The notes under the pieces were generated by a model that was given only the letters and a program-made list of their open reading frames with translations, ran no database searches and was not told where the DNA came from. From NCBI GenBank assembly GCA_027622665.1, contig JAQBYT010000001.1, forward strand, positions 352,001 through 416,000: a stretch of 64,000 nt of DNA, in the 5' to 3' direction. This DNA is from Verrucomicrobiota bacterium. Its GTDB lineage: Bacteria; Verrucomicrobiota; Verrucomicrobiia; Opitutales; Seribacteraceae. Of the stretch, positions 35,069-64,000 are shown piece by piece. Position 1 is the stretch's first letter. Each line of letters begins with the position of its first letter. A program made the translations under genes and the position numbers.

Positions 35069-35120
35069 TCAGAACCTCTTTCGACAAGCACCCGAACAAA
35101 GTTTTTTCAGCCAGCCTAGA

Positions 35121-36881: not shown

Positions 36882-36909
36882 TTTTAAACTTTCCGCATCT
36901 CGCATCTTG

Positions 36910-43826: not shown

Positions 43827-46800
43827 ATGTCTTCCTTGCTGAAAAAGACGGCTAAAGTGAAATTATTGTTTCGCGGTGCAGTATGGATGATTTCGTTAGC
43901 TGGTATTATCGGAACAGTGGTTTTTTTGCTCTCGCGCCTGCCCGAGAATACTATTTCCACTAAAAAACAAGACGACCCCGTTCTCGCCCCTAATGGTACT
44001 CCCCGGGCTCTGGGAAAAGTGACTTTACCTAATGTCCCTTCGTCTGAATCTCTCGAATGGTGCTCTCCATCTCGAATAATCGCGACTAAAGCCGATCCGG
44101 TCTTCAAGCTTTTTGGCCAGTGGGTTGCTGCTCGTAAGGAGGGCAGGGCGGAAGTCGAGAAAGGCGTTGTTTTGGCGAAGGAGCGCCGGGAGGTTCTCGT
44201 TCACTTGATCCGTACCGACCCGGAGGCCGCCTTGTCCTTGGCAGTTCCGGAGATCGACAGGCACGATCTACCCAAGGCCATTCTCCCCTTCTTGGGCCGG
44301 TGGGTGAATACTTATGCGGATGTCGAAGCGGTTCATTTTTGTTTGGATCCAAACCACTTGGGCGGCTTCATCAGGCACACCGTCATTCTTCCTGATGGTC
44401 GTCGCCTGAAGGCATCTCTTTACGGAAAGCGCGAAAAACTTCCCACGATGAAGGGCCTCGCCATTCGGGGCATCGCTGTGGGCGATAAGTTGGCGGTGGA
44501 CGAAAATCCTGTCCGCCGCCTAGGAGAAACCGAACTTCGAGATCGCCAACTAGAAGGCTTGGCCGCAGTGGAAATTGCCGATGCAATATATGAATTTCCA
44601 CGCCGGGAAGGTGTTCTTGCCTTTGAGCGTCGAGTGCGTGAAGCCGAGCGCCGGGCCGGGCGTCATCGAGTGCGTTATCCGGTAATTGCCAGCAGTTTGG
44701 GCTCGAGTACGATTATTGACCTCAAGTACAAGGTGGTTACCGTGTCTTCCGATTGGGAGACGGCCAAGGAAGATGCGGAGAACAGCGGTGGACGGTTGGT
44801 TTGCATCGGTTCCGCTCAGGAAAATGAGGATGTTCGCAAGCTTTTGGCTGATGCCAACGTCATGGGCTTGTTTCCCGAATACAACGGCACGGTGCCATAT
44901 GCCTGGATCGGGGGGACGGATGACGAGAATACTAGTGGAAGTTCTTTCAACAAAGTTACGGACTCCACCGAATATTTTGACTTGAATGCTACGGAAGGAA
45001 ACTGGACTTGGCTCGACGGGACCACTTTTGCCGCCTATTCCAACTGGGCAGACGGCGAAAACGATAACGCAACGAACCCCGTGCTTGCGGAAGCGGAAGA
45101 CTTTGCCGTTATGGACTGGAATGCCGGCGGTCTCTGGCGGGACCTAAAGCGAGATTTTCATTTGCCATACGTTATAGAGATGGATCTTGGTGATCAGCCC
45201 GATGCGAGTGACGTTCCTATTTCCGACAACCGTAAAGTGTTGGTTATACGAGCTCGTTTTCAGGATGAGGGCGTGGAATACGCCGGATCGTCCAAGCCTG
45301 TTGTTGACCAGGATGGCAACATAATAAATCCCGACAAACAGCAAGATGTTTTCGAGCCCGTTACCGGACTTCAAGTGCGTCAAGAAATGGAAAAAGTACG
45401 AGAATTTTATCAACGGAATTCGGATGGCAAACTGAACCTGGACTATGTAATCACAGGAACCGTGACGATACCCTACAAAAGGTGGGAACAGCATGAAATG
45501 TTTGGTGACATCGCGACTGTGACCACTCCGGATTTTATGGATGCAGCGATAGTCATAGGAGCTCCAATGGCGCGAGCTGCGCAGGTGAGCCCCGAGGATT
45601 GGGATTTCAGTGGACCAGCCTTCAACGGAGTGATCGGCATAGAGGTGAATGCCAGTGGAGGCGGCTACCTTTATCCACCCCTTGTTCGAATCGAGGGTGG
45701 CGGAGGCGCAGGAGCGAAAGCCGAGACCTTTCTTGATAACAATGGTAGCATTGCATCGGTTTTGGTTACGGATACGGGAAGGGACTACACCTCCGTTCCC
45801 GCGATTACGGTCGAAGGGGCCCATCAAGACCCCAATGGTGACGCTAATGCCACGCTGAGTGCTAAGGTCGGAAGGACTGCGGTTTCATGGATATCCATCA
45901 CCACGGGGGGTAACCCCGGAGGGGTGGGCATGGTTGGCGCCCCGGGCTCACACGTCAATGCAGCGACATGGGATGCTGGTGTTGCGGTCCATGAGCTTGG
46001 GCATAACTTCGGGTTCCAGCATGCCAATCGGTACGAGTCCGTTGGCGAGAAAGCAATTAGCGACGAAGGCGGAACGATCGATTACGGCAATCCATATTCC
46101 GTCATGGGCACGGGAGGCATTGGAGCCGACCTTACGGTGGCAGCCAAATCCGTTGCCCAGTTTGGCTACACGACCAGTTCTGCCACGGGAGCTGACGTGA
46201 CCGTCCTTGCCACGGGAGCTGACATTGTGGCAAGCAGATGGCGTGAATTGAACGCCACCCGGCAAAACGTTTTTCGAGTCTACCGACACGACCACGGTTC
46301 AGCCCCATATCCATTGCGGTTAGGGTCCTACCATGTGATCATACCGACCGATGTCGACTTGCCTACTGATTTCAACGGGAGCATAACCGTGGCTATTGGC
46401 GGTCCGGGCACGGAGGCGACTGCCTCCGCCTCCGTTACCGGGTCTGACCGTAGTTACATTTTGGAGATTGAGAATCCCGGCATCGGTTTTTCGGAAGAGC
46501 CGAGAATCGAGTTGATTAACGAACAAAACGCCACTCTATTGCTTGATCCTGCTTGGATTCAGGTTTTGGCGGGCCAAAAATCGATAAAAGCCGAATTGCG
46601 AGATCGCTCACCGTCTTCCGCCAAGGGATTGCGAGCCATTCGTTTGTCCGCCTCCTCGAAAGCCCCTTACTCCTCCTACCTTGTCTCTTACAGGCAAGCC
46701 GCAACAAAAAATGGCCTGAACTTATTAAATGCCGATGGCTCCGACAACATTTTGCTGGATCTCACCCGCAACACGCCTGACGATTTTAACGACGGTTCCC

Positions 46801-49800
46801 TAATGATAGGGCAGACCTATTCGGACTACGACAGCGACATACACGTCACGCCCGTATCGCGAGGTGGAAATTCACCGATGGAATATTTGGAAGTCGCCGT
46901 GAACGTGGGGACAGTTGCGGCCGAAAACGCATCCGCCCCATTATTCTCCCTGCAGACAAGTAATCTTCGCCCGGAGGTAAATCAAGGAGTCGAATTTACC
47001 GTCATGTTGACCGGGGATGCCAACCTTTCGCGATATGCCTTCTCTTGGTATTACGACGAGAGACCTCTTATTGGTAACGCCTACCTAAACCAGCCAACAA
47101 TAATAAAGACTTTCGACTCCGTGGGGAACCATAACCTCCGTGCAGTGGTTTCCGACATGAAGGGTGGCGTATCCTCGCAAACCGTAGTCCTTGCCGTGGG
47201 CGAGCCCGAGCAAGCCGGCATATCGCGCATCGAGGGCGTGGTCGAATCCACCACCGGACCCGTGCAGGGGGCAAGGGTAGTCCTGCAAAAGGCTCCCGTC
47301 ATTCAGCATGTGGTCACCGTCTCGGGCGACCTTATTTCTTCTCGGATACCAGGGGGACAGGCGTACGCCACGAAATTCCTCATTGATGGTCAAAGGGCGC
47401 CTCGTCTCGAATTTCGACGAGGAGAGATTCACCGTTTTGAGTACGAGCCGTCCGCGGAAGGTTATCCAATCACTTTTTATTCCGCCCCGGACAGCGAGCC
47501 GGCCAAGGTGGAATTGAAGCTCATTTACTCTCCCAGAGTGGAAGAGCCGGGTTCGGGTTACAGGCAAAATCCGGCAGTCGTGCTGGATGGCGGAATTTTC
47601 GACTCCTACGAAAGCAACCTCATTCGTTCCTACGTCGAATATCTTGAGGAGAATGGTTCGAGCACGACCCTAGCCAGGATTGTTTACAAGCCATATGCAA
47701 AATCACTCCTGATGGATACCGGGGTAGAAGCTATACATACTCGCAAAGTGGCGGATACTCAAGGCGGCGATGGGCATCACCCGGCTTCCCCGCCTTCGGT
47801 CACTATTAGTCGGCAAAGTCTCTGGGAAGATTACAGCGATTTAAATGCCACGGCCAAAGCTTACGTAGATGGAGTGGGTACCATCTTCGTTCTAGAGGCC
47901 GGTGCGGGCTATCCGGATTCTCCATCCATCGCCGTTGTGGGGCGCGGCGTGGAAGCATCCGCATCGACCCAAACAATGGGGGTCACAAACGAAAAAGGCC
48001 AAACGCAACAGGACATGATCAAGAAAGTTTCCGTTGTCGACCAAGGTCAAGGTTATGACCTCAACACTACCTTGGCGACCGCCTTGTACCCCCCCAACCC
48101 TTTTGCCTACTGGTCCTTCGATCGCGAGGAATCCTTATTCCGCCAGAATTACTATCCCCGCAAGGACAAGCTTATGCTGGAACCCTCCCCCGGCTGGCTC
48201 CGACCCATTACCCGGAGCTTGAAAGCCCATTGGTCGATGGACGAGGAGAATTCCACCATGGAACTGAACGCTACCATCGCCGATCATCACATCGGGGCCA
48301 CTCCCGTTCTCGGGCAAAAAACCGATTACAACGCCACCATGGAACTGAACGCTACCATCGCCGATCGCTCCGAGTGGGGCATTCGAGGTCGAGCCATACG
48401 GCTTCAAGGTAATTCTACCGTCGAGGAATATCTCGCTCCTGATTCACCTAACAAATTTCTTGGCGATTCCTTTACGGTTTCCCTTTGGGTGAAGCCCGAT
48501 GGTAGCGGCAGTTTTCACGGACTGGCCTCCCAGGCCGGGACTGGGGATGCCTTTTCGCTCTACTGGAATACCGTTGATTTCATTGGAATTCTTTATCAAG
48601 CGGAGGAAAATGGCGGTTTGGTAAGCGACGTTGTTTTGGAGGGAGGTGATTTAAATGCCGGTGAATGGACACATGTCGCCTATGCCTTCGACGAAGACTC
48701 CGCGACCGCGAGCATGTATGTGATGGGTGAACTGGTGGCCAGCAAGACCTTTACTCTCGCTGGCAACTTCAACAAAATTTCTGGGCGTGCCTCGGACTTT
48801 ATTCTAGGTAAGGCCTTTACGGAAACCTCAAGCACCGAATACCTCAACGGTTTTCTAGACGAAGTCAGCGTCTTCGACCGTGCCTTGGAGCCACGTGAGA
48901 TTCGCCAACTGTCTGGCGATTTGTTTCTCGATCTTTCCGGACAAAACCGTCACGGCGTCGCCATGGATATGCCGATGAACGATCCCGACGAGTTGAACGC
49001 AGGGGTGGTGGCGGGCAACCAAAACGACGGCCTCGACCTTAGCGGCGCCCGATACGTCGACCTTTCGCAGACCGCCCAAGACTTTGCCGCGCTCAGCACG
49101 GGCAGCGTCAGCTTCTGGTTCAAGACGACTTCCTTGGAGGACGGAACGCCCGCTGACGGTACTATTCTGGCCGCCTCGGACAAAGATGCCCCCGATTCCT
49201 TCTTTCGACTTATGGTTCGCGATACGGGTCAGCTCCAGTTTCATGTGTCCAACGACGGGGTGGAGGTTACGCGCTTTTATACCGAGAACATCTTCAACGA
49301 CTTCAAGTGGCACCACGGGGTGCTTGTTGTAAACGAGGCGGACTCACTGTTTTACGTCGATGGCATAGCCGTGGGGTTGCGTATTGCAGGACAAGGGCAA
49401 AGCGCTCCCCGTGGCTTTTTCGCCGACATTGAGAACATCGATTACATGGGCATCGGTCGCCACCAAACGAGCGAGGCAAACCAAACCAATTATTTCAGCG
49501 GCGAACTCGATGAAGTCTGGATTTTCGATCGTGTTCTCGAGGCTCCGGAAATATCTTTTTTACACGATTTGCGCCCCGAAGTTAAAGATGTCTTTCGAGC
49601 CTCGCTGGAGGCTCGCGTGGATTCAGTGGGAACGGTGAAAGTGACTGCCCCCGGAGCAGGCTACAAGGAGACCCCGGCGGTAACCTTTTCTCCGGGCGAT
49701 ACAGTCGGTTATACGTGGATAGGCTCCGCCGAGGACGGGAACGTGTCTCGGTGGTTGCCCTTGAACTTGGCACCCGGGTCCAGTCAACCGGATGAGTGGG

Positions 49801-52800
49801 ATGCCTCCGCCACCTACGTAAAGGGTGATTTGGTTCGTTACCGAAACAACGCTCTAGCCAATTGGTATACCTATTCCGCCTTTCGCGAGAACAACGACAA
49901 GAAACCCCTGGAGGCGAACCTCATGGAGAACAATTCTCGTCACATTTATCCCGATGCCGTGTGGCAAAGGCATGAACGCAGCGAGGGCAGTATGACCTAC
50001 GGAGTTCTCTATCTCCAGCCGACAGGCCTGGAAAGCATTCTGCTAACCAAGGACATGGGTCCGGCGGCGGTTTCAAATAATTTCAACCACTTTCTCCTGC
50101 CTGACGGCAACCCAGTCGAGCGGAGATACGTCGAATACGTCGGCGAAAACGGAACTGCATACGAGCTAAGCGGAGGTCATGTGTGGGCTCATTCATTTGC
50201 GTCTTCCCAATATTATTCACTACCGAAGCCTGGGCCCGCGTCTGGCGTTTTTGGATTTCGGGCTCCGCCCTCGATTGTCATCGAGGGCTCCGAAACCGAT
50301 GACAACGCCACCGGTAGTCATCTGTTCTATATTGATCCGGTGGAATCTGTTCTCATTACAGATCCCGGAAACGGATATTTGGATCCCGAAGGGATTGCTG
50401 TCGGGGATGTGCGCTTTCGCGGAAAGGGCTCTACCCCCCCTCGGTTCGAGGCCATAATGAGGGAACAAGCCATCCATGGATTCATTTTAAGAAGGCCGGG
50501 CACCGGGCCCTATGACTTCGACGTCGAAGGCAACTCCACCCTCGACGGCATTTTTGATACGCTTACGGAGAGAGGATTGGGCGGTCTCAGCGATGGTGAA
50601 AGATCTCTGAGTATGCTAAAGCCAGCCGCATTAGCGGGAACTCCGGAAATAACGACGAAAGATAACGGCGACATTGTTTATTATCCGGCATCGGAGGGGT
50701 TTTGGGGCACTCGCGACGTTTTCTATGACGCCAAAGACGGTCAATTGAAGTTGCGCAATCCCGAGCGACTGTTGAGTTTCATTGGAGACGGCACAGGAGA
50801 GAAGCCGCCCGTGGTCGAGGTATTTCTCTCCGACAAATTGGACGTGGAACGGGGCGTGGCCCCCCGAAAGTACGAAGTCAAGGCTATGCGGATAATGCCC
50901 GCGGAAGACCTGGGATCGGCGAAACCCGACTACGGTTCCGGCTGGGTGAAGCCGCCCACGATTTATTTCGATTTGAATGCGACCGCTGACCGCCAAGTTA
51001 ATGCGAGCAGCTTGACTTTTACGAACATGTTGTCCCACGTACAGATACTGGACAGTGGGCTCGGCTACTCCGTGCCGGTGGAAGTTAATTTCCACGGCGG
51101 GTATGACATCCCATGGAATTACAAGGACTTGAATCATTCCCGAGCCCGCATTCTGCCCGACGAGGTCGATGAGAACGGAACCCTTTCGGCGGATGCCATC
51201 GAGTTGCTGGATCCCGGTACCGGCTATAGTCGACCTCCCTTCGTTTCCATAACCGGCGGCGGAGGAGTCGGTGCTCGCGCTCGTGCTTTTCTTAATGACA
51301 GCGGGGAGGTCGCCGCTATCCTCGTTACGAACGGTGGTCGCGGCTATTTCAATCTGGACGCAAACAACACCCCCAAGGCGGTCTTGGTTTATCCCGCGGG
51401 ACAAGCGACAAAGGATGCCAACGTTACTATGCGCTTGGGTGGCTCTCTCGACGAAATTCCCGTGCAAGGCTTGGAATCGACCCGTTTACACCATATTGCC
51501 CCATGGGTACTGATTACGGACAACGCCGGAACGGGCAAAGGCGCCACTGCATTTGCCAAGGTGGTGAACGGTCGTATTGAGAAAGTGATCGTGGAAAACG
51601 CAGGTAACAGTTATCTCGACCCACGCATTGAAATCCTTACCGCGTCTCCAAATAATGCAGATGCATTATTTTTATCCAACCCCAATTACAGGGACGAGAT
51701 CGACGGCTGGATACCATTTAATGCCAGATGTTCAGCGATTTTCAGCAATGGCCAGATCGTCGAAATCATCGTAGATAATCCCGGGTCGGGTTATGCTAGC
51801 CCTGAGATTGTGGTGGCGGGGACGGGCTCGGGCGTGGAGGCAATACCCGTGTTCGGCGATACAGGCAAGATCGTCCGCATAGTTTATGACGATCCTGCTC
51901 TCAAGAACGAGGAACTGAGCCCAGTGTCCTCGCCCTCCGGGGCGGGCCAGGGATTTTCCGAACGTCCATGGGCATTGGGCGAGGTGGTGCGCGTAACAGT
52001 GGTGGACGAGTATTCCTACTCTCGAGCCAATCATTTTCACGAAGCTGCTTTTCCATTGAAAACGGCGGACCTCTTCATTGGCTTGCCTGCCACGCGTGAC
52101 TCCGCGGGTGATCAAGTTTCCGAATTCACGATCCATGACCATGGCATTGGTTACGGTGCCGATGCCCCTTCCATCCGCATCGATTTCAATTCCAGCCATG
52201 CCAAAAGTTTCAGAGACGCTTGTGCCACAGCTTTCCTTACCAGGGGGTTGAGCGAGATGGTTCTCGAAGGCAACGGAACCTATGAAGATTCCAACGGCAA
52301 GTGGCGGTCCGTTTTCGAAGAAATTCCGGTAGTAGAAATTCATCGCGCAAACCTTGAAGAAGAAGATGCCTACAAGCTGACAAGTGTTGGGCGCAACGGG
52401 GATATCGATTACGATCCATTGGCCCACCGGCGTTTCATAGACGTAGTGGTCGACGATGCGTTTCCTTCTTACTCCAGTTATTCTCTTTCGGATTGGGACC
52501 GCGAGGGTTTGGGTGGCGAAATTCACACTCTCGATTCGGCCCCCTCCCTTGATTGGCGTGTGGTGACCAAGTGGGAGCCCGGCAAATACCGGAAGGGAGA
52601 CGTCGTATGGTGGGAGACCGATGCCTACGAAGCTCTCGCCACCTTTGTCTCGGGGAGTTTGAAAACGGAATCCGCCGGAGAAGACGGGGACCAGTTTTGG
52701 CGCAAGCTTAACGGGCAAAGCGGCGCCATGTCGGCCTTAGGTGTAGTAACAGCCTTCAACCATGAATTTGGATCTAGTAGCATATCTGTTTCTCGGGTAC

Positions 52801-55800: not shown

Positions 55801-57200
55801 CCAATACAAACGGAGCCATAGATCCCGGAGAGGGTAGGATACTCGTTTTCGGGGGGACCGATTCCTCTACGCTTGAGCCTTTTACTGGACTTTACGTAGC
55901 GGATGCCAACTCAACGGTCGTAAATCCCCTGACCACTCTTTCCTCGGCTTTTGTCGAGCAAGGGCTTTCTCGGGAAGACGCCAAGTTAAAGGTGGCGGAC
56001 GCACTGGGGTTGTCAGCTACCTTGGACTTGTACAATTATGATCCGATTGCTGCAGCCGCGGAGGGAGATGCCAATGCCAGTCAAGCTCTTGCCGCAAGCG
56101 CTCGGATCGCCAACGCAATTCGGCAGGGGACGGCCTTCGTGAAATACGCCTCGGACGGGAATGCTTCGGGAAAAACGATCTCCACTCAATTGATTACGGA
56201 AGTTGCCGCCAAAATTGCCGACGGGACGGTTTCTCTCTTTGGCGATGCGAGCGAAATGCAGAAAGTTCTTACAAGCGTGGTAACGACTTTGGGCATTGCC
56301 GGAGTCACCGACGAAGATTTGGCCGGAGCGGCCCAAATGTCGGTGGTTGCTGATGGAATGATCGTCGAGTCTCTCATCGCCAAAGGGACTAACCCCGATA
56401 AACTTGCGGTCGAATTGGCAAAGATTCAAGCGGTCGTCGAGGATAGCATAGTACAGGGGTACGACAAGTTGCGGCTCGAAGGCGGAACACCCGCCACCCT
56501 GGCCATCGCCAAAAGCAAGGAATTGCTTTCCGGGCAAACGTCCGACTACAAAGGGAGCGTTAACATCTTCCCGCCCACGGCGTCCAACGCGGTGGCGGCC
56601 CTGCCTTTCGACCAGTGGATTCAGGGAGCAATCATTCTTAATCTTCATGCTAACGATGCGGATGGAGATACCGTAGGCTTTTCGATTAGTTCGGGCAATC
56701 CCGATGCCGACAAGGATGGGGTCGCCGCTTTTTCCTTGAGCGAGCAAGGACAACTCTTGGTGGCGGATGCGGACGAAGCTGGCTACCTGTCTGTCGGTGA
56801 AGCCATGGTCGTCGCGTTGCGTTTGACCGACGGAAAAGGCCTTTATGGGACAGCAACCGTTACCGTGAAACGCGGCAATGCTCTTGCATTGAACACCGCA
56901 GAAGTGGAGCAGGCCCAAAACTGGCATCAATCCAGTTGGTTGGGAGACTTTTTTACCAATGGCTCGTCTTGGGTGTTTCACGAGAGCCTAGGCTGGCTCT
57001 ATGTGGTTTCGGACAGAACAGGAGGGTTTTGGTTTTGGGATGTCGGGCTAGAGGCATGGTGGTGGACGAATTCAACCTTCTTTCCCCACTTTTATCTTGT
57101 TCGGCAAACAGGCTCAGGTTGGGGATATTGGGATCTAAAAGCGGTTCCGCCGATATACTTCGATTTTAACGAGAATAGTTGGAAGGAGAAAACTAAATGA
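43827..57200 (+). CDS. Giant (4457 aa) surface metalloprotease/adhesin
   Basis: N-terminal TM/signal. C-type lectin (44724-45180: WETAK...AWIGGTD...W-x-WLDG...NW). Metzincin HELGHNFGFQH (45990-46022) with Met-turn YGNPYSVMG. PKD; two LamG (~48100-49570); CBM5/12-like stretches; DSDGDG Ca-binding repeats (~54100-54400); DUF5011-like Ig; cadherin-like; Trp-rich C-terminus. Confidence 0.9.
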   Translation: MSSLLKKTAKVKLLFRGAVWMISLAGIIGTVVFLLSRLPENTISTKKQDDPVLAPNGTPRALGKVTLPNVPSSESLEWCSPSRIIATKADPVFKLFGQWVAARKEGRAEVEKGVVLAKERREVLVHLIRTDPEAALSLAVPEIDRHDLPKAILPFLGRWVNTYADVEAVHFCLDPNHLGGFIRHTVILPDGRRLKASLYGKREKLPTMKGLAIRGIAVGDKLAVDENPVRRLGETELRDRQLEGLAAVEIADAIYEFPRREGVLAFERRVREAERRAGRHRVRYPVIASSLGSSTIIDLKYKVVTVSSDWETAKEDAENSGGRLVCIGSAQENEDVRKLLADANVMGLFPEYNGTVPYAWIGGTDDENTSGSSFNKVTDSTEYFDLNATEGNWTWLDGTTFAAYSNWADGENDNATNPVLAEAEDFAVMDWNAGGLWRDLKRDFHLPYVIEMDLGDQPDASDVPISDNRKVLVIRARFQDEGVEYAGSSKPVVDQDGNIINPDKQQDVFEPVTGLQVRQEMEKVREFYQRNSDGKLNLDYVITGTVTIPYKRWEQHEMFGDIATVTTPDFMDAAIVIGAPMARAAQVSPEDWDFSGPAFNGVIGIEVNASGGGYLYPPLVRIEGGGGAGAKAETFLDNNGSIASVLVTDTGRDYTSVPAITVEGAHQDPNGDANATLSAKVGRTAVSWISITTGGNPGGVGMVGAPGSHVNAATWDAGVAVHELGHNFGFQHANRYESVGEKAISDEGGTIDYGNPYSVMGTGGIGADLTVAAKSVAQFGYTTSSATGADVTVLATGADIVASRWRELNATRQNVFRVYRHDHGSAPYPLRLGSYHVIIPTDVDLPTDFNGSITVAIGGPGTEATASASVTGSDRSYILEIENPGIGFSEEPRIELINEQNATLLLDPAWIQVLAGQKSIKAELRDRSPSSAKGLRAIRLSASSKAPYSSYLVSYRQAATKNGLNLLNADGSDNILLDLTRNTPDDFNDGSLMIGQTYSDYDSDIHVTPVSRGGNSPMEYLEVAVNVGTVAAENASAPLFSLQTSNLRPEVNQGVEFTVMLTGDANLSRYAFSWYYDERPLIGNAYLNQPTIIKTFDSVGNHNLRAVVSDMKGGVSSQTVVLAVGEPEQAGISRIEGVVESTTGPVQGARVVLQKAPVIQHVVTVSGDLISSRIPGGQAYATKFLIDGQRAPRLEFRRGEIHRFEYEPSAEGYPITFYSAPDSEPAKVELKLIYSPRVEEPGSGYRQNPAVVLDGGIFDSYESNLIRSYVEYLEENGSSTTLARIVYKPYAKSLLMDTGVEAIHTRKVADTQGGDGHHPASPPSVTISRQSLWEDYSDLNATAKAYVDGVGTIFVLEAGAGYPDSPSIAVVGRGVEASASTQTMGVTNEKGQTQQDMIKKVSVVDQGQGYDLNTTLATALYPPNPFAYWSFDREESLFRQNYYPRKDKLMLEPSPGWLRPITRSLKAHWSMDEENSTMELNATIADHHIGATPVLGQKTDYNATMELNATIADRSEWGIRGRAIRLQGNSTVEEYLAPDSPNKFLGDSFTVSLWVKPDGSGSFHGLASQAGTGDAFSLYWNTVDFIGILYQAEENGGLVSDVVLEGGDLNAGEWTHVAYAFDEDSATASMYVMGELVASKTFTLAGNFNKISGRASDFILGKAFTETSSTEYLNGFLDEVSVFDRALEPREIRQLSGDLFLDLSGQNRHGVAMDMPMNDPDELNAGVVAGNQNDGLDLSGARYVDLSQTAQDFAALSTGSVSFWFKTTSLEDGTPADGTILAASDKDAPDSFFRLMVRDTGQLQFHVSNDGVEVTRFYTENIFNDFKWHHGVLVVNEADSLFYVDGIAVGLRIAGQGQSAPRGFFADIENIDYMGIGRHQTSEANQTNYFSGELDEVWIFDRVLEAPEISFLHDLRPEVKDVFRASLEARVDSVGTVKVTAPGAGYKETPAVTFSPGDTVGYTWIGSAEDGNVSRWLPLNLAPGSSQPDEWDASATYVKGDLVRYRNNALANWYTYSAFRENNDKKPLEANLMENNSRHIYPDAVWQRHERSEGSMTYGVLYLQPTGLESILLTKDMGPAAVSNNFNHFLLPDGNPVERRYVEYVGENGTAYELSGGHVWAHSFASSQYYSLPKPGPASGVFGFRAPPSIVIEGSETDDNATGSHLFYIDPVESVLITDPGNGYLDPEGIAVGDVRFRGKGSTPPRFEAIMREQAIHGFILRRPGTGPYDFDVEGNSTLDGIFDTLTERGLGGLSDGERSLSMLKPAALAGTPEITTKDNGDIVYYPASEGFWGTRDVFYDAKDGQLKLRNPERLLSFIGDGTGEKPPVVEVFLSDKLDVERGVAPRKYEVKAMRIMPAEDLGSAKPDYGSGWVKPPTIYFDLNATADRQVNASSLTFTNMLSHVQILDSGLGYSVPVEVNFHGGYDIPWNYKDLNHSRARILPDEVDENGTLSADAIELLDPGTGYSRPPFVSITGGGGVGARARAFLNDSGEVAAILVTNGGRGYFNLDANNTPKAVLVYPAGQATKDANVTMRLGGSLDEIPVQGLESTRLHHIAPWVLITDNAGTGKGATAFAKVVNGRIEKVIVENAGNSYLDPRIEILTASPNNADALFLSNPNYRDEIDGWIPFNARCSAIFSNGQIVEIIVDNPGSGYASPEIVVAGTGSGVEAIPVFGDTGKIVRIVYDDPALKNEELSPVSSPSGAGQGFSERPWALGEVVRVTVVDEYSYSRANHFHEAAFPLKTADLFIGLPATRDSAGDQVSEFTIHDHGIGYGADAPSIRIDFNSSHAKSFRDACATAFLTRGLSEMVLEGNGTYEDSNGKWRSVFEEIPVVEIHRANLEEEDAYKLTSVGRNGDIDYDPLAHRRFIDVVVDDAFPSYSSYSLSDWDREGLGGEIHTLDSAPSLDWRVVTKWEPGKYRKGDVVWWETDAYEALATFVSGSLKTESAGEDGDQFWRKLNGQSGAMSALGVVTAFNHEFGSSSISVSRVRRENGSAAFFHIGDRSQETEILGENVYTWAYLPDAWISYTDSNGYYSFPNLEPGLYNAAVLAEDSNLEEITFREDGNSTVTHVVYVPGIPSLRLETDENGVGSSSLIWPEDVLRLGESASTKKILKGIGAGFRPGTLPVFSITADSKNTGRGIPNLSVTVNPDGSLDIETVDENSSNHNSADSFTVFYGSTISGLNFKEDYFFDRLDDAYWMGRKAAVDANASRLIISPSAGVNSVEMPISSSEAGDLNMTFSAKGYDWNGTLLDTDDIQWKLEFDFNSTEGNLTKLASLSTVDGNSTTLTLRSTLRSGKIALVRVDAGGTGYSDDNSTLVEIFGDGSGAFARISEVNSTDGAVKAIEVVEGGRGYSVISGIRLTRPEGQIGTDANLTALVGGGLWLKATLGSLEQKVRLEASHRAQLSEKEQWSDLHFDTVREDFIDWNDDNDSDGLNNSLEFSYRTNPWNADSDGDGLSDGNETTLMTDPNNADTDSDGLLDGVETNTNTYVDVNNTGTNPKNPDTDGDGWPDGLEVSFGLDPHKTEKGGAGISGMIYFKGEMNGTLYVFAIPEGEPPFAEETAVSEFLGGDKPLTPSSATFYFFKNLPAGKKYEIHAFIDRGESGDPSNKVYDYGEPVGSYSGSWDGNLSEDRSQVNFVVKDPPPHLTLLPMVGSVMGGVDGKEEIAVYLNPGVKVFHLKPVANDDYDGIIDPKTVSPSSTYPLDGNATGIITITELDATEGSGTLEVSSTALPGVYHLIYAAADSAGSASAITRIIVIRDSIPPEISLFPDESVVVAYEYEAGTKWKDPGYSAIDVVDGNLTHKVGVALPSGWDSGDVGIVLGFYNLNYTVQDIAGNQALATRIVEIVDTSAPDLLLFGSPSMNLNKGETFLEPGYSALDTVDGDLSNRVTVSGSETLEENVTGTYELNYSVIDDSGNEINSTRTIYVADWNYTIAGKAMDGYLVGASVVFDIDGNGTHDLSSPVLTDESGAFSFAFTTEEFLMTDTNTNGAIDPGEGRILVFGGTDSSTLEPFTGLYVADANSTVVNPLTTLSSAFVEQGLSREDAKLKVADALGLSATLDLYNYDPIAAAAEGDANASQALAASARIANAIRQGTAFVKYASDGNASGKTISTQLITEVAAKIADGTVSLFGDASEMQKVLTSVVTTLGIAGVTDEDLAGAAQMSVVADGMIVESLIAKGTNPDKLAVELAKIQAVVEDSIVQGYDKLRLEGGTPATLAIAKSKELLSGQTSDYKGSVNIFPPTASNAVAALPFDQWIQGAIILNLHANDADGDTVGFSISSGNPDADKDGVAAFSLSEQGQLLVADADEAGYLSVGEAMVVALRLTDGKGLYGTATVTVKRGNALALNTAEVEQAQNWHQSSWLGDFFTNGSSWVFHESLGWLYVVSDRTGGFWFWDVGLEAWWWTNSTFFPHFYLVRQTGSGWGYWDLKAVPPIYFDFNENSWKEKTK
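48253..48366 (+). repeat. Perfect 33-nt direct repeat, 81-nt period, in frame
   Basis: CCACCATGGAACTGAACGCTACCATCGCCGATC at 48253-48285 and 48334-48366, encoding TMELNATIAD twice. Confidence 0.95.
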
Positions 57201-60200
57201 AAAGAATGAATGGCAAATGCCAAATTGCCTTTATGGCTCGACTAACCTTACTTTGCCTAGCTTTTTTCGTGAGCCACCGGACTCTTAGGGGTCAGGTGTT
57301 GGTTCCGGATCTCAGAATCGACTCGGATGATTTCATCGAGGTTTTCGTAGGAGGTACTTTTGACGTAACTTTTCGCATTTTTAATGACGGAACGGAAGAG
57401 ATCTTCGCCGGGGAAAGCATTACTTGGGCTGTCGAGGTCAATGGCCCGGACGGGCAAGCCGTACCTTCATTAAGTAGAACCGGGCAAATCCTAACCGGAC
57501 TGCCCATGAATCAAAGTACGCCCGATGAAACAGTAAGCCTTCGCATGCCATGGGCGCAAGCCGCCCAGTGGAGCAACAACGCCAGATGGACCATCGCAAC
57601 ATCCGTGGTTACTCCAAGAGATGTAAATGGGACCAATAATCGCGATACCTCCACTTTTTCCTTGGTTATACCGGATGTCACTTTGAATAATTTAGTGGGG
57701 CCCGTAGCCGCTCGACCCGGGCGAAACGTCAGCGTTTCAGGTACTGTAGCCAATGTCGGGCGAGTCCAAACGCAACCGAATGTCTACTTCCGGGTAGAGG
57801 CAAGGTTGCTGCAGAATGGAACGGAGGTGGACAAGCAATCGATAGTCTTACCTAATCAAAGCGCACTCTCTCCTTTTCCTTTTGATAGCGGGGATACGAT
57901 CGACTTCACGATCAATGAATTATTCATTCCCATAGACGGCAACGGCACCTACGACGTGATTGTGAACCTGGATGCCGGATCACCTGATATTTTAATCGAG
58001 CATACGGAAAACAACAATCAAGCAACTGTTCAGTTTGACGTAAGTTCAAGTGCAAGCATACAGGTCGTCGACGGTAGTTTCTTTAGTGATACCGGCACCT
58101 TTCAGGGGATGGCCCCGGCTCACTTTCGTTTTGCCGTTCGCAATGTTGGAACGGGCCCCGTTGGGGTCGGGGATGCCTTTCAGGCAACCATTGCTCTCTC
58201 TCGAGACCAAAGTGGGATTGATGCCGACGATTTCATTTTACGTGAATTCGATCTTGGAGGAAGTGGGCTGGGTTTAGGCCTTAGGCCCAATGAGACCGTA
58301 ACGCTTGACTGGATTCAGAGGTTGCCCGACAGTTTCGAAGGGGATTTTTACATTGTGGCGAATTTGGATGGTCAAACATTTGTCTCGCAACCTACTCCAT
58401 CCATCACCTTGCGATCAAATAATTCCGGGGATACCATATCGGTGAGTGAGGGAAAAAACAGCTGGAGCTCTCGTCCTTCTTATGATCAAACGGGCCGATA
58501 CGTTGCCTTCGAATCTTCCGTTGGCGGAATTGTTAACATATTCCTGCTGGATACAATCTCCAACCAGGAAACTCAGGTAACGAGGAGCTTTAATAATGCT
58601 GCAGCCGATGGATCTAGTTTTGCTCCCAGCTTAAGTGCAGATGGAAAATTCCTAGCCTTTCATTCCAGCGCTTCGAACCTAGTTCCCGGTGATACTAACG
58701 ATCATACGGACGTTTTTCTTTTTGATCGAGAAGCCAATGGAATTTTTCGTCTGTCGACAAGTGTTGATGTCGGCAGTCCTGATGGAGGTAGTTATTACCC
58801 TTCGGTCAACGGTGACGGCTCGGTAGTGGCTTTCGAATCACTTGCGTCAGACCTTAGTGCTACGCCGCAATCTTTTTCGGGAAGCAATATCTTTGTTTGG
58901 GACTCAAACGGAACCACCTTAAACAAACTATCACCAATTACCGCGGCGGGAGACTTCGCAAGCTTAGACGCCGATATCAGCGAGGACGGGAATCGCGTCG
59001 TGTTCACCTCTTATGCCACCAATTTCAACCTATCGAACTTAAGTTCATCGGACAACAACGAGTATTCAGATATTTTTCTTTGGGAGCGAAATACCTCGAA
59101 AATGTATTTGGCGAGCGTGACTTCAGGCCAAGCAAGGACAACCGGTGGCGCGTCTTCGGAGTCCGTAATCAGTGGCGACGGGAAGGTCATCGCCTATCGT
59201 TCTTCCGCAAAAAACCTTGTTACCGAGAAGGGTATTTCAACGATCGAGATTAAGGATGCAGGAGTGGGCTATACGCGGACTCCTTCCATTGCCATAACCG
59301 ATGCGAGCGGTTTAGGTTCAGGGGCAACTGCGGAAGCCCATATCAACACTTATGGAGAGATCATCAGGGTCTCGGTGTTATTGCCGGGCAAATTATATAA
59401 AGAGCCCAGAGTAACAGTGGTGCCCGACCCTGCTGATGTCGGGCCTAGCCGCCTTGCCATTCTTGAGGCTCGTCTTACACACCCCGAAGGCGATGTTTAT
59501 AGAGTGCCCGCGCAATCCTTGATTGACGGTCAGCCCGAAATCAGTCGAGCGAGTGAAAGTGTACTTTCGGTTGGAGGCGACAAGGGAAGTCGTGAGCCGA
59601 CCCTCAATTACGATGGTAGTTTGTTGGCCTATTCCACACAGGCGAGTAATCTCTTGGTTGACAAACTCGAGCGAGAAGATCGTAGGGTTTTTCCGAATGC
59701 AACCTTTAGGATGGCAAGAGCAAGAGCTGTAATCGGTGGCCCAATTGGCGAAATCGAGGTTCAGAATTCCGGCGAAGGGTATCAAGACGGACAGCTTCGA
59801 ATAGAGGATCTTTCCGGTAGCGGATCCGGGGCTCTTGCCCTATATCACGTTGATAATTACGGACGTATTGCCGACATATCCATCTTTAATTCGGGGAACA
59901 ACTACGACTATTCCCAAACCATGATATCCATAGACAACCCGAGGGCGGGAACGGGCTTTCAGTTGAAGGACATCCGCCATCAGGTCACCAGTGGCATTGG
60001 AAATAATCGATCCGGCGGCGGGACCATTCTTCGCCTGGAAATGGATGACAATGGTTTGGGTTACACCAAAGAACAGATTCTCATGCAGGGTGCGGGCATA
60101 ATTATCGACGGAGATGGCGCTGATTTGGACAATGATGGAAAGCCCGATGCAAAGGTAAATCCCGATCGTATCCATTTGGGTGACAATGGTGAGGTTTTCC

Positions 60201-63200
60201 TAGAGCAACAAATAAGGCTTGTGGTTCAGAGTACGGTGGGTCTGCATGGCGCCACCTTGACGGTTACTGACCACTTGAAGACGGAAAAATTAACTTTCGA
60301 TGCGTTTTCGGCCATTGTTGTAGGCAATGAGATCGGCATATCGGGGCAGTCGGTAGTTGGTATTCGCGATGCGATTGCGGATGCACTCGAAGGCCTTTGG
60401 CCAACCGATTCCAATGCCTCTCTATACGAGGGTCTTCAGATAGACGAGCCAACTCTTGGCGCAGACTTTTTGGTTGTTAAAGCCCTCGGAGGACGAGCGA
60501 TCTCGGGGAACCCTTCGTCTCTTACCGCGACAATGCTAAGCAATATGCTTGTTGGGGGAACGGGTTTCACTCGAGCCACGCCTATTATTGCTCCCGATCC
60601 CGTAGTCTTCGGTTTTTCTGAAATCAACACGAACATAAGTTCGGGCATCATGTCCAATGGACGACCGGCTCTCTTGGTCAACAAAGATCAATTTACCGAC
60701 GACATCTATCTTTATGACCACTCAAATAGCCTAAACGAAAGAATCACCACCAGTAAATTTGGTTTGCCGGTAAATTATAGAACGAATGCAACGACCACTA
60801 TGCCCTCCAATCGGTTTCCCTCGATAACGGGGAATGGCCGTTTCATTTCCTACAGCTCGGATGTTCAAGGAGCAGGTGGACTTTTGTTTGGCGCAACTAA
60901 CCAAACCCCCTCTGACAATAATGGTTTTCGGGATGTCTATGTGCATGACCGCAAGACAGAGGCGATGAAGACGCCCTCTAATGAGAAATCATCTTCCGGA
61001 TCCCTTTCCATGTTATACCCCAATCCGAGCATAGATCATTCATTTCCCTCCAACGCATTCGTACCGGTGATTGTCGAAACCGAGATCGATCGAGGCTTTG
61101 TTTCTCGGGTCGACCTAATAGTCAATGGATCCATGGTCAAGAGCATGGACGAGCATTTGAGCAACCTGCACTCGGGGCGCTTTTTTACGCGATGGGATGC
61201 CAATGTTTCCGGCATTCATAGCATAGCCGTGGCAGCATACGATAATAATGGTATTCTAATAGCAGAGACTCAACCTGTCGAAGTCTCCGTAGGGAACTTT
61301 TCAGGTTCCTTGCCGCCCAGCGTTAGCCTTAGCGCCATTCCTTACGATTCCATTACTTCGACATCAACGATTCCCCTGCAGGCAAGTGGAGCCGATTCGG
61401 ATGGCGATTTCAAGGGGATTCAGTTTTACGTAGAAGGCCAGCCCTATGGGAACGAAATCTTGCGTTTTCCTACACAAAACCCCGAAGCCTATATATATTC
61501 AACAACTTGGAAGCCCGCGACTCATGGAGTGTACAGTATTTTTGCGATTGGCCGGGACAATAGCGGAAATTACGTGGCAAGTGACATCTTGAATATTGCC
61601 TCAACAACCGGCTCCACTCCACCCTTGGTCAACTTCACGAAACCTTATGAGCCTATCGACTACAAGGGGAGCACTCTCTCCATTGCCAGCGGGTCCATTA
61701 CGGACATCACCCTTGGCCATGCTGCGGTCGGTGGCGGTTACTTTAATACTCCTCGAATAAGTCTCTTTGGCAGTGGTTCCGGCGCACGGGCAGAAGCAAT
61801 CTTGGACCTGAATCAAAGCTCTGATAATTACGGCCGAATTACCGGGATCACGGTTTTGGATGGCGGTTCCGGTTATGAAACCGCTTCCTCATCTTTTTCG
61901 GTCACTCCAGTAGTTAAAACAATTCGTGTTGGCAGGACGGCTAGAATCAATAATCGAACTATTATAACTAGAAACGACTTAGGGATCATCACTAACATAC
62001 AAACAGAGCTTACCCTTGGGGACGGCGGCGATGGTTATGTTGTGCCTCCAAATTTGTTTTTGTCTAATGGTGAGGTGCGCAGATTGCCTATTGTTCCGGT
62101 TGTAGTTGGGGCATCAACTGGCGGCGTTGATCCGGCCGAGGCTGGTTTGCCTCAGATCTTGCCGGGTATAGTTACTGGTTCAGTAGTCGGCGGATTTGCG
62201 TATTCTCCCCTTAATCTGGAAGTAAACGCATCGGACCCGGATGGCTTTGTTCGTCAAGTGGATTTCGTCGTAGACGGAGTGGTTGTAGCTTCGGACCGGG
62301 TAGCCCCCTTTAATCTCGAGTGGACTCCTGGGGATGCGAAGGAATACCAAATATCGGCCTTGGCTAAGGACGACAATGGAAACATCGGGTCTTCTGAAAC
62401 CGTGGTGGTTTCCATAGAGGAAGGAATTGGCTTCATGCCCATCCTTTCTTTTGACGACAATCGAACCAACTCTATTCCCTTGGGTTCCGAGCACATTCTT
62501 ACCGTCAGGGCATTGGATGATGAAAGTATAACGAATGTTGAATTTTTTAAAAATGGCAGATCGATAGGCTTTGCCGACAAGCAAGGGGCATCCGATTATT
62601 ATTCTCAAGTGGTCTCTTTTGCAAACGACGAAGAGGGCGACGCGGTTTTTTCCGCAGTCACCAGAGATACGGGTGGAAACCAAGTTGGAACTTTTTCCCG
62701 GGCAATAGCTTTCCGGTTGCATAAAACGTACAGGCTTTTACCCGCCAAAGGGGCAACGCCCCCAACCGCCCAGATTCTTGGACCTTTATCACCCGTCAAA
62801 TGGCTGACTGATGGCGAAAGGCGTTCAAAGCGACAAAGGCGAGCGGCAACGGTATTCCCCACGAACCCCACCTTTTCTCTTGGTGCAGCTATTCCAATAG
62901 TAGTTCAAGCCACAGCTGCAACTGGAGCATCCATCGCAGAGATTCAATTTTTTGGAAATGGCGTTCCCTTGCCAAGCGCGGGTGGCACTAGCTCGGTTAT
63001 CAACCAAGGAACAACGCTTCATAACGAAGGACGTTATGTTTTCGATTGGGTTCCAAACCGAACAGGCACCTACATCATAGAGATCATAGCAATAGACAAT
63101 TTTGGCAACCAACGGGTTTCCTCGTTGTTGAATCCCATTACGATTATCGACACCTTTGGCTCGCAGTCACCCGGTGTGACTCTCATGTCCCCGCAAGCCC

Positions 63201-64000
63201 TTCCCGTAGAAAGTTACACGAGCACTTCCTCCCTGCGCTTTATGGCGAATGCAGCCGATACCGATGGAGATCTCGTCGGCCTGCAATTTTTTGTGGACGG
63301 AATGCCGTACGGCGATCCCATTTTGCGAGGCGATACCCTGAATCCGTCAAAATATCCATACAGCATCGACTGGAGCCCCGGTTCGGCCGGTGTTTTCACC
63401 GTTTCTGCGGTTTGTTGGGACAATAGCGGCAATTACATTTCCTCCGGATCTGCATCGATTACCACTACCACCGGCTCCACTCCTCCAACCATTTCCGTCA
63501 CCAAGCCATCTAAAAATCTTGAACTCGATACTGTGGACATAAACGCCACCGGCTCCATAACGGGCCTGTCCATCAAGACCAATGATTCTGTCTTCACAAA
63601 TAATCCTGTAGTCAGTTTTGCAGGTTCCGGGACCGGTGCCGCCGCGGAAGTGGTACTCAATCAAGACGGAACGATTTCTCACGTTTCCATGACGAGCTCG
63701 GGCACCGATTATGCCGCCCCCCAGATAAGAATTCGCCCATCTCTAAAGTCGGTGACTCAAGGAATTCCTGCTATTGCCGAGACCAACTTGTTGAATGTTT
63801 TATTTTTAGCTGGAACTGGAGGCGTTCATCCACAAACGGGAGAGGCTTTGACAGGAGGCCAGGTTTGGTCTGCTCCAGTTACATATAAGGGAAAGGGGTA
63901 CCGGAGTCCTCCGCGAATTGTATTCCTTGGGCCTGCCACGCGACCAGCAGAGGCTATTACTACGCTTGCCGGTATTGATGCAACCGGCGGGTTAGCTGGA
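57197..64000 (+). CDS. Second giant secreted protein (>2268 aa, runs off the window): CARDB, TolB/PD40 propeller, bacterial Ig domains
   Basis: Absent from the ORF track, consistent with no stop before the window end; segments I translated across it are open. ATG overlaps the previous TGA (ATGA). Signal peptide MKRMNGKCQIAFMARLTLLCLAFFVSHRTLRG; CARDB-like PDL...N-x-G...ENN; APSLSADGKFLAFHSSASNLVPGDTNDHTDVFLFD; ASDPDGFVRQVDFVVDG. Confidence 0.9.
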   Translation, partial: MKRMNGKCQIAFMARLTLLCLAFFVSHRTLRGQVLVPDLRIDSDDFIEVFVGGTFDVTFRIFNDGTEEIFAGESITWAVEVNGPDGQAVPSLSRTGQILTGLPMNQSTPDETVSLRMPWAQAAQWSNNARWTIATSVVTPRDVNGTNNRDTSTFSLVIPDVTLNNLVGPVAARPGRNVSVSGTVANVGRVQTQPNVYFRVEARLLQNGTEVDKQSIVLPNQSALSPFPFDSGDTIDFTINELFIPIDGNGTYDVIVNLDAGSPDILIEHTENNNQATVQFDVSSSASIQVVDGSFFSDTGTFQGMAPAHFRFAVRNVGTGPVGVGDAFQATIALSRDQSGIDADDFILREFDLGGSGLGLGLRPNETVTLDWIQRLPDSFEGDFYIVANLDGQTFVSQPTPSITLRSNNSGDTISVSEGKNSWSSRPSYDQTGRYVAFESSVGGIVNIFLLDTISNQETQVTRSFNNAAADGSSFAPSLSADGKFLAFHSSASNLVPGDTNDHTDVFLFDREANGIFRLSTSVDVGSPDGGSYYPSVNGDGSVVAFESLASDLSATPQSFSGSNIFVWDSNGTTLNKLSPITAAGDFASLDADISEDGNRVVFTSYATNFNLSNLSSSDNNEYSDIFLWERNTSKMYLASVTSGQARTTGGASSESVISGDGKVIAYRSSAKNLVTEKGISTIEIKDAGVGYTRTPSIAITDASGLGSGATAEAHINTYGEIIRVSVLLPGKLYKEPRVTVVPDPADVGPSRLAILEARLTHPEGDVYRVPAQSLIDGQPEISRASESVLSVGGDKGSREPTLNYDGSLLAYSTQASNLLVDKLEREDRRVFPNATFRMARARAVIGGPIGEIEVQNSGEGYQDGQLRIEDLSGSGSGALALYHVDNYGRIADISIFNSGNNYDYSQTMISIDNPRAGTGFQLKDIRHQVTSGIGNNRSGGGTILRLEMDDNGLGYTKEQILMQGAGIIIDGDGADLDNDGKPDAKVNPDRIHLGDNGEVFLEQQIRLVVQSTVGLHGATLTVTDHLKTEKLTFDAFSAIVVGNEIGISGQSVVGIRDAIADALEGLWPTDSNASLYEGLQIDEPTLGADFLVVKALGGRAISGNPSSLTATMLSNMLVGGTGFTRATPIIAPDPVVFGFSEINTNISSGIMSNGRPALLVNKDQFTDDIYLYDHSNSLNERITTSKFGLPVNYRTNATTTMPSNRFPSITGNGRFISYSSDVQGAGGLLFGATNQTPSDNNGFRDVYVHDRKTEAMKTPSNEKSSSGSLSMLYPNPSIDHSFPSNAFVPVIVETEIDRGFVSRVDLIVNGSMVKSMDEHLSNLHSGRFFTRWDANVSGIHSIAVAAYDNNGILIAETQPVEVSVGNFSGSLPPSVSLSAIPYDSITSTSTIPLQASGADSDGDFKGIQFYVEGQPYGNEILRFPTQNPEAYIYSTTWKPATHGVYSIFAIGRDNSGNYVASDILNIASTTGSTPPLVNFTKPYEPIDYKGSTLSIASGSITDITLGHAAVGGGYFNTPRISLFGSGSGARAEAILDLNQSSDNYGRITGITVLDGGSGYETASSSFSVTPVVKTIRVGRTARINNRTIITRNDLGIITNIQTELTLGDGGDGYVVPPNLFLSNGEVRRLPIVPVVVGASTGGVDPAEAGLPQILPGIVTGSVVGGFAYSPLNLEVNASDPDGFVRQVDFVVDGVVVASDRVAPFNLEWTPGDAKEYQISALAKDDNGNIGSSETVVVSIEEGIGFMPILSFDDNRTNSIPLGSEHILTVRALDDESITNVEFFKNGRSIGFADKQGASDYYSQVVSFANDEEGDAVFSAVTRDTGGNQVGTFSRAIAFRLHKTYRLLPAKGATPPTAQILGPLSPVKWLTDGERRSKRQRRAATVFPTNPTFSLGAAIPIVVQATAATGASIAEIQFFGNGVPLPSAGGTSSVINQGTTLHNEGRYVFDWVPNRTGTYIIEIIAIDNFGNQRVSSLLNPITIIDTFGSQSPGVTLMSPQALPVESYTSTSSLRFMANAADTDGDLVGLQFFVDGMPYGDPILRGDTLNPSKYPYSIDWSPGSAGVFTVSAVCWDNSGNYISSGSASITTTTGSTPPTISVTKPSKNLELDTVDINATGSITGLSIKTNDSVFTNNPVVSFAGSGTGAAAEVVLNQDGTISHVSMTSSGTDYAAPQIRIRPSLKSVTQGIPAIAETNLLNVLFLAGTGGVHPQTGEALTGGQVWSAPVTYKGKGYRSPPRIVFLGPATRPAEAITTLAGIDATGGLAG

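Follow-up and report, generated by a model that had tools for sequence, protein, structure and literature searches.

The window analysed here is a stretch of 64,000 nucleotides of DNA from an uncultured family of marine Verrucomicrobiota. It corresponds to positions 352001 to 416000 of one contig (G000:C55:352001-416000) of a genome of 4.5 Mb in 66 contigs, 93.5% complete, that we refer to as G000. At its downstream end there are two consecutive genes for giant proteins in which D/E-X-N-X-S/T, the acceptor motif (extended sequon) of the Campylobacter N-oligosaccharyltransferase PglB, is found at much higher frequency than expected, and the same genome codes for a PglB-like enzyme. The two genes are the following.

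Window 43827..57200, forward strand: giant protein 1, 4457 aa (open reading frame translation, sequon counts and Pfam).
Window 57197..64000, forward strand: giant protein 2, of which the first 2267 of 3984 aa are in the window (full gene G000:C55:409197-421151).

The start of giant 2 and the stop codon of giant 1 overlap by four bases, and the second gene extends past the end of the window. We have taken as an extended sequon any N-X-S/T (X different from Pro) with D or E at position -2 and without Pro at -1, and compared the counts with 2000 composition-preserving shuffles, using the reversed motif [ST]-x-N-x-[DE] as a control. Giant 1 contains 69 N-X-S/T sites, 55 of them with the acid at -2 (D in 37 and E in 18). 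The shuffles gave 4.0 +/- 1.9 extended sequons (maximum 11) and 31.3 +/- 5.1 plain N-X-S/T (maximum 48), and the reversed motif did not appear at all. The first-pass annotation had counted by hand about 50 extended sites and about a dozen lacking the acid, which was accurate (55 and 14). The 13-residue contexts of the 55 sequons are all different, so that internal repeats do not explain the number, and the sites are dispersed rather than tandem. In giant 2 the part inside the window has 29 N-X-S/T and 10 extended sequons vs. 2.3 +/- 1.5 (maximum 9) in the shuffles, and the full protein 56 and 17 respectively, for an expectation of 4.18 (Poisson p 2e-6). The sequons that had also been noticed in this second protein therefore represent a real enrichment, much weaker than that of giant 1. 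In the remaining open reading frames (ORFs) of the window the extended sequons were near expectation.

The excess is not restricted to these two genes. Calling the ORFs of G000 by a crude greedy procedure (longest first, without overlap) gave 3559 ORFs, with 1392 extended sequons vs. 693 expected (2.0x) and 613 reversed motifs. Separated by size and by export classes set with hydrophobicity rules, equally crude, the figures were as follows.

Cytoplasmic-like, 1523 ORFs: 211 observed vs. 212.0 expected, 1.00x.
Signal-peptide-like, up to 800 aa: 212 vs. 115.9, 1.83x.
Signal-peptide-like, 800-1500 aa: 99 vs. 46.1, 2.15x.
Three or more transmembrane segments: 98 vs. 32.5, 3.0x.
All ORFs over 1500 aa: 445 vs. 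75.0, 5.9x.

The reversed motif was enriched in none of the classes (0.67-1.08x). The coupling between an acid at -2 and S/T at +2 had odds ratios of 1.09 (p 0.27) in the cytoplasmic-like, 1.97 (p 1e-19) in the signal-peptide-like and 6.14 (p 2e-101) in the ORFs over 1500 aa. Around the N-X-S/T sites of the latter the fraction of D/E was 0.45 at -2 and 0.07-0.12 at the other positions from -6 to +6; as a reference, at -2 in the cytoplasmic-like ORFs it was 0.12. Thr was preferred at +2 (T/S ratio of 1.46 in the ORFs over 1500 aa vs. a background of 0.80), and Ala (3.0x) and Gly (2.4x) were enriched at +1. After [DE]-x-N-x, T was enriched 4.7x and S 2.6x, and Asp was depleted (0.65x), which excludes a DxNxD calcium loop as the origin of the motif. 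After correction, 26 of the 3559 ORFs were individually significant (p < 1.4e-5), and 43 were so at p < 1e-3. Giant 1 ranks third among them, behind C3:128-12661 (79 extended among 117 N-X-S/T) and C12:42319-48522 (52 of 61). The comparison with the cytoplasmic proteins of the same genome thus places the excess in the exported classes, and the motif excess is a property of the exported proteome and not of two genes.

A search of the genome with STT3 models, along the lines proposed in the first-pass annotation, found a single PglB-like gene, scoring above the Pfam cut-offs and with all the catalytic motifs kept.

G000:C43:2660-5920, reverse strand: PglB-like STT3 enzyme, 1086 aa, the only STT3 locus found in the genome.

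The scores were 71.9 bits for STT3 (PF02516, cut-off 24.5) and 74.7 bits for STT3-PglB_core (PF21436, cut-off 23), and 16.5 bits for the NCBIfam model archaeo_STT3. The best solved relatives were three structures of Campylobacter lari PglB (ClPglB), with E 5e-43 for the sequence alone and 1e-70 when a profile of 32 members was used. The AlphaFold model of the enzyme (pLDDT 79.8, pTM 0.76) retrieved with Foldseek the structures 6GXC, 5OGL and 3RCE at E ~1e-23 (target TM 0.65-0.66), and STT3 and AglB at ~1e-7 (AglB 7e-7). There is no variation among the 32 family members at residues D123, R218, D225, D227, T448, E451, R463, R529 and W630-G634, which correspond, in this order, to D56, R147, D154, D156, T316, E319, R331, R375 and WWDYG of ClPglB. 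The correspondence is mostly direct; a direct alignment of the loop residues 390-510 to the solved structures gave nothing useful, and the stretch of TIxE and R331 was mapped through an intermediate homologue (P0203) that is alignable end to end with 5OGL. R463 sits 12 residues after E451, as R331 does after E319. The roles of the catalytic and metal-binding residues of ClPglB, and the pairing of R331 with the acid at -2, are described in passages of PMC7226087. The bacterial M-x-x-I motif, which takes the place of the DK motif, is represented by I743-M-R-I746, aligned to M-L-R-I (I572) of ClPglB. Among 112 PglB-like homologues, 86 keep the last Ile, and at the first position 81 have Met and 12 have Ile. 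In a FastTree phylogeny of 116 PglB-like proteins, rooted at the midpoint and with most rows lacking a taxon label, the enzyme group formed a well-supported clade of nine within a clade of 25 that also holds proteins named from metagenome-assembled genomes (MAGs) of Verrucomicrobiales and Limisphaerales, apart from the group of 81 that includes the closest relative of C. lari PglB.

Of the 36 other genomes of the family, 28 had a match to the core domain of the enzyme. There was none in 24 genomes taken to represent, one each, the other families of the order, and a single one (G212:C165:2509-2796) among 400 further genomes of the phylum with a completeness of at least 80%. Named relatives of the enzyme come from MAGs and single-cell genomes of marine Opitutales/Puniceicoccaceae, including 'Candidatus Chordibacter forsetii'. 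Other rare PglB-like proteins of Verrucomicrobiota are those of ~933 aa in MAGs of Verrucomicrobiales and Limisphaerales (P0139 cluster). The family genomes without a match to the enzyme were G002, G008, G011, G016, G022, G026, G030 and G031. In three of them the gene that stands upstream of it elsewhere is at or near a contig end (G016:C115, G026:C175, G030:C103), and in another it is split (G011:C76/C315). These misses are therefore probably assembly breaks, and the enzyme locus, flanked by repeat arrays, seems to be one that breaks assemblies.

Orthologues of giant 1 were found in 25 of the 36 family genomes, and outside the family there were only domain-level matches in one genome. The 13 orthologues that we retrieved, from five genera, all had 43-74 extended sequons vs. 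3.5-6.7 in their shuffles. Compared with an orthologue 83% identical, 45 of 53 aligned sites were in the same alignment column; with orthologues at 32-40% identity, only 10-18 of 34-50 were, and 16-26 fell within five columns. The Asn of the sequons was somewhat more conserved than other Asn in most orthologue pairs. The density has been kept across genera while many sites move, a pattern that fits selection acting on coverage and not on individual positions.

The genome-wide statistic followed the presence of the enzyme. In 400 contiguous kb of G029, a genome from a different genus in which the enzyme is present, there were 207 extended sequons vs. 86.4 expected, with 27 vs. 24.8 in the cytoplasmic-like and 40 vs. 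16.2 in the signal-peptide-like ORFs. Evenly spaced 400-kb samples of two relatives without the enzyme gave no excess (G053, 50 vs. 58.9; G047, 42 vs. 48.2); forty random samples of G000 of the same size had ratios of 1.16-2.95 (mean 1.93). Neither was there an excess in 21 large ORFs of the LamG type from the enzyme-less G052, G047 and G057 (32,375 aa, including a giant of 6027 aa), with 28 extended sequons vs. 24.0 and an acid fraction at -2 of 0.116. Hence, enzyme and motif excess co-occur in the family and are both missing in the relatives examined.

We consider it likely that the giants are exported surface proteins and that their D/E-X-N-X-S/T sites are acceptors for the single PglB-like enzyme, which would provide them with a dense coat of N-glycans. 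A preassembled glycan would be moved from an undecaprenyl-diphosphate (Und-PP) carrier onto Asn after export, by an enzyme that would be active and obey the "minus-two rule", and most of the sites would be occupied. The donor would be an Und-PP-linked glycan, possibly built by a set of PglC/F/E-like genes located on contig C13 and flipped by the ATP-binding cassette (ABC) half-transporter coded next to them (see below). The coat would shield proteins of such length and extended shape, against proteases for instance, or keep them hydrated and stiff. A PglB/STT3-type N-glycosylation system had been proposed in the first-pass annotation from the motifs of the two giants. It is supported by the excess of the motif, by the confinement of this excess to exported proteins and by the enzyme coded in the genome, glycosylation itself being a prediction.

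Upstream of the enzyme gene there are genes for a 764-aa membrane protein and for a 573-aa coiled-coil protein, and downstream one for an FG-GAP protein. The order membrane protein, ~570-aa coiled-coil protein and enzyme was found in the five other family genomes examined, intact in four and with the ORFs split in G024, the middle gene being matched between genomes by size and position only. We considered both upstream proteins as glycosylation partners and discarded them: the membrane half of the 764-aa protein is also present in 12 of the 24 enzyme-less families and hence is not specific, and the 573-aa protein gave only weak matches of coiled-coil type. The FG-GAP protein (L002:3-2435, reverse strand, on G000:C43) has 43 extended sequons among 45 N-X-S/T sites. 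Each of its repeats carries one E-x-N-G-S/T, and after them comes a (GDGNFTDP)n array reaching past the contig end.

Genes that might supply the donor glycan are found in a different contig.

G000:C13:29693-47690, all genes in one direction: glycan-assembly region (L125, L126).

This region codes for an ABC half-transporter (582 aa), an epimerase, a WecA-like transferase, a small phosphoglycosyltransferase of the Bac_transf type (227 aa), a Polysacc_synt_2 dehydratase, a GNAT acetyltransferase, a DegT aminotransferase and GT4 glycosyltransferases. In its gene content the set is similar to PglK, C, F, D, E and A. Candidates for the pgl-like flippase and glycosyltransferase genes called for by the earlier prediction do exist then, although they are not specific to the pathway.

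Giant 1 starts with a hydrophobic anchor or signal, and Pfam identifies in it two Laminin_G_3 (LamG-like) domains, two Bact_surface_Ig-like domains and one PKD; in giant 2 the matches are Big_7 and CARDB. Residues ~310-780 of giant 1 (window 44750-46200) had Pfam matches below threshold, to a C-type lectin domain (E 0.016) and to zinc metallopeptidases of the reprolysin type (E 0.002-0.01), and a HELGHNFGFQH motif can be seen by eye in the same region. Judging from these matches, giant 1 could unite lectin, protease and adhesin-like domains. Near residues 3430-3500 there are Asp-rich repeats, recognized by eye, of the thrombospondin type 3, which overlap two or three of the sequons. The genes preceding giant 1 in the window are listed below.

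Window 35037-36881, forward strand: PilM-like gene (Pfam PilM_2, E 7e-21).
Window 36907-38145 and 38151-39503, forward strand: two genes matching no Pfam family at E up to 0.1.
Window 39671..43435, forward strand: secretin, 1254 aa (Pfam Secretin, E 2.5e-36).

These four genes form a probable pilus or secretion assembly operon, and such a PilM/secretin apparatus may serve to export or display giant 1. The secretin, directly upstream of giant 1, has no extended sequon among its three N-X-S/T sites. It adjoins the orthologue of giant 1 in 12 of the 12 family genomes where the two were located on the same contig; two genomes, G007 and G020, have the secretin but gave no match to giant 1. Elsewhere in the window, the gene at 7934-9811, located in a stretch of low GC (0.41), codes for a 625-aa fusion of an S-adenosylmethionine methyltransferase and an ATP-grasp domain of the D-Ala-D-Ala ligase type. 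Contigs of 220-730 nt from four seawater metatranscriptome runs, at least 95% identical, covered 20-24 of 30 bins of window 43827-63826. Being assembled and unstranded contigs with possible DNA carry-over, and uncovered bins carrying no meaning, they are a weak hint that both giants are transcribed. The contigs of two of these runs have a 6-base in-frame insertion at window 45143 relative to the window, which is probably strain variation in giant 1.

Several observations weigh against the giants being densely glycosylated by this enzyme. What is known of this uncultured family in this regard is the sequence statistics and the presence of the enzyme. N-X-S/T sites without the acid amount to 14 of 69 in giant 1 and 39 of 56 in giant 2. 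In a structural model of residues 3150-4130 of giant 1 (pLDDT 66) the sequon Asn were no commoner in coil than the others: 14 of 19 confidently placed ones, mostly beside strands, vs. 16 of 23, so that the sites would be compatible with exposed loops and secondary structure does not discriminate. The enzyme fails the NCBIfam equivalog for PglB (NF050801, 196.6 bits vs. a cut-off of 1300), and by that standard it is a distant relative and not an orthologue of PglB. Its ~330 C-terminal residues (P0003 ~760-1086), confidently modelled and mostly beta-strand, have no counterpart in C. lari PglB and no Pfam match; a LysM domain, hinted at by a Pfam flag on one relative, was not found in them at E up to 1. 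The enzyme gene is outside any glycan-biosynthesis cluster, unlike in Campylobacter, and the C13 set is possibly the source of the donor but could equally serve lipopolysaccharide or capsule. The crude gene calls and export classes limit the statistics of G000. Outside it, the genome-wide statistic comes from sampled DNA of two enzyme-less and one enzyme-bearing genome, and the relatives are kin whose counts illustrate rather than provide independent tests. Finally, the equivalent of R331 is an insufficient predictor of the minus-two rule: according to passages of PMC4894442, Desulfovibrio gigas PglB keeps this Arg and is nevertheless relaxed, so the Arg alone does not enforce the rule. For this reason, the proteome statistics are the stronger argument for specificity.

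One alternative is a real system in which the giants are glycosylated only sparsely or under some conditions, the enzyme serving mainly the stalk proteins with tandem sequons or releasing free oligosaccharides, as Campylobacter PglB also does, and many of the sites of giant 1 staying empty. Enzymes of the PglB type modify proteins that have already been exported, at sites that are exposed and flexible, so that buried ones would be missed. Of the 19 confidently modelled sequon Asn of giant 1, 5 are in strands or helices. The modest enrichment of giant 2 (17 vs. 4.2) and the low proportion of sites sharing a column between genera (10-18 of 34-50) go in the same direction. Nevertheless, a 13-fold excess, present in 13 of 13 orthologues at 32-40% identity between genera, would be hard to maintain unless most sites were used, and the Asn of the sequons is somewhat better conserved than other Asn in most pairs. 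We regard sparse glycosylation as unlikely.

The motif might also have a structural or calcium-binding role in repetitive surface domains, or result from composition, with no glycosylation involved. The overlap of two or three sequons with the Asp-rich thrombospondin-type-3-like repeats of giant 1 could be read in this way, as could the location of the E-Q-N-G-T/S sites at the same turn of each repeat in the FG-GAP protein adjacent to the enzyme. However, the preference for T and S and the avoidance of D at +2 do not correspond to a DxNxD loop, no two of the 55 contexts are the same, there is no enrichment of the reversed motif, and the acid is enriched at -2 alone. Moreover, the LamG-type giants of relatives without the enzyme have no excess, which on the other hand extends to ordinary signal-peptide and membrane proteins of G000. 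This makes a purely structural origin very improbable. Even less credit can be given to the modification of Asn by a different enzyme, such as a cytoplasmic N-glycosyltransferase of the HMW1C type, in favour of which nothing was found. Such enzymes use plain N-X-S/T, leaving the acid at -2 unexplained; the genome (at its 93.5% completeness) had no match to GT41 (PF13844), and its cytoplasmic-like proteins have no excess of the motif.

Returning to the PglB-like enzyme as the origin of the motif excess, the closest parallel is the Pgl system of Campylobacter. The glycoproteins of Campylobacter carry only a few N-glycan sites each, whereas here there are giants with 43-79 sites and tandem arrays. 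The enzymes of C. jejuni and C. lari (3RCE, 5OGL, 6GXC) are also single-subunit members of the STT3 family and share with the one described here the catalytic residues, WWDYG, a Met/Ile-x-x-Ile motif instead of DK and the Arg equivalent to R331. The acceptor inferred from the proteome statistics, an indirect readout that fits it strongly, would likewise be the D/E-X-N-X-S/T of C. jejuni PglB, with T over S and Ala at +1, and DQNAT is given as the optimum of that enzyme in passages of PMC4894442 and PMC12229607. The differences are an identity of ~22-23%, a length of 1086 aa vs. 713, with a longer loop before TIxE and the ~330 extra C-terminal residues, the failure at the equivalog cut-off, the location outside a pgl cluster and the separate branch in the tree. 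The same passages describe PglB homologues of Desulfovibrio (D. gigas, D. alaskensis, D. vulgaris, D. marinus) that, like this enzyme, are bacterial, single-subunit, found by genome mining and from outside Campylobacterota. These are relaxed at -2, whereas the proteome signal here is one of strong acid preference at that position. Archaeal AglB and the S-layer proteins are alike in that one STT3-family enzyme places many N-glycans (predicted in our case) on large surface proteins. AglB uses plain N-X-S/T and has the DK motif (passages of PMC7226087), and the enzyme of G000 is nearer to PglB (Foldseek 1e-23 vs. 7e-7). The natural (GDGNFTDP)n array resembles the tandem DQNAT "GlycTag" tags engineered for glycoengineering in E. 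coli (passages of PMC12229607), but it is far longer.

In the passages of PMC4894442 and PMC12229607 the characterised bacterial N-glycosylation of the oligosaccharyltransferase (OST) type is almost wholly from Campylobacterota, with a few Desulfobacterota. The passages of Lombard 2016 (PMC4973528) that matched our search mention no STT3 homologues of Verrucomicrobia. Full-text searches, with subscription journals outside their reach, gave no paper linking PglB, sequons or oligosaccharyltransferase to Verrucomicrobiota, Opitutales, MB11C04 or Chordibacter, in agreement with the first-pass annotation, which was not aware of such a system in marine Verrucomicrobiota. These genomes thus support a putative N-glycosylation system of a divergent PglB type, new to the phylum, whose predicted giant substrates are unusually dense in sites.

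With less assurance, we lean towards a broader picture, that of a general N-glycosylation throughout the family on a scale undescribed for bacteria. It would comprise ~700 sites above expectation in this genome, giants with 40-80 glycans and mucin-like N-glycan brushes made from the tandem arrays. All would depend on a separate, uncharacterised branch of PglB, probably derived from a single ancestral acquisition, and the coat would be comparable to those of archaea and eukaryotes. On the practical side, the comparison of exported and cytoplasmic proteins with a reversed-motif control provides a cheap readout of acceptor specificity in uncultured organisms that uses sequence only. If the prediction is true, a divergent and apparently strict minus-two enzyme and natural multi-site acceptor scaffolds would become available for glycoengineering. 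A system present across a family of abundant marine Verrucomicrobiota would, if true, extend OST-type N-glycosylation to a new phylum and to free-living bacteria of the ocean, and it would predict a dense glycoprotein coat on the giant adhesin- or enzyme-like proteins of these polysaccharide-degrading bacteria.

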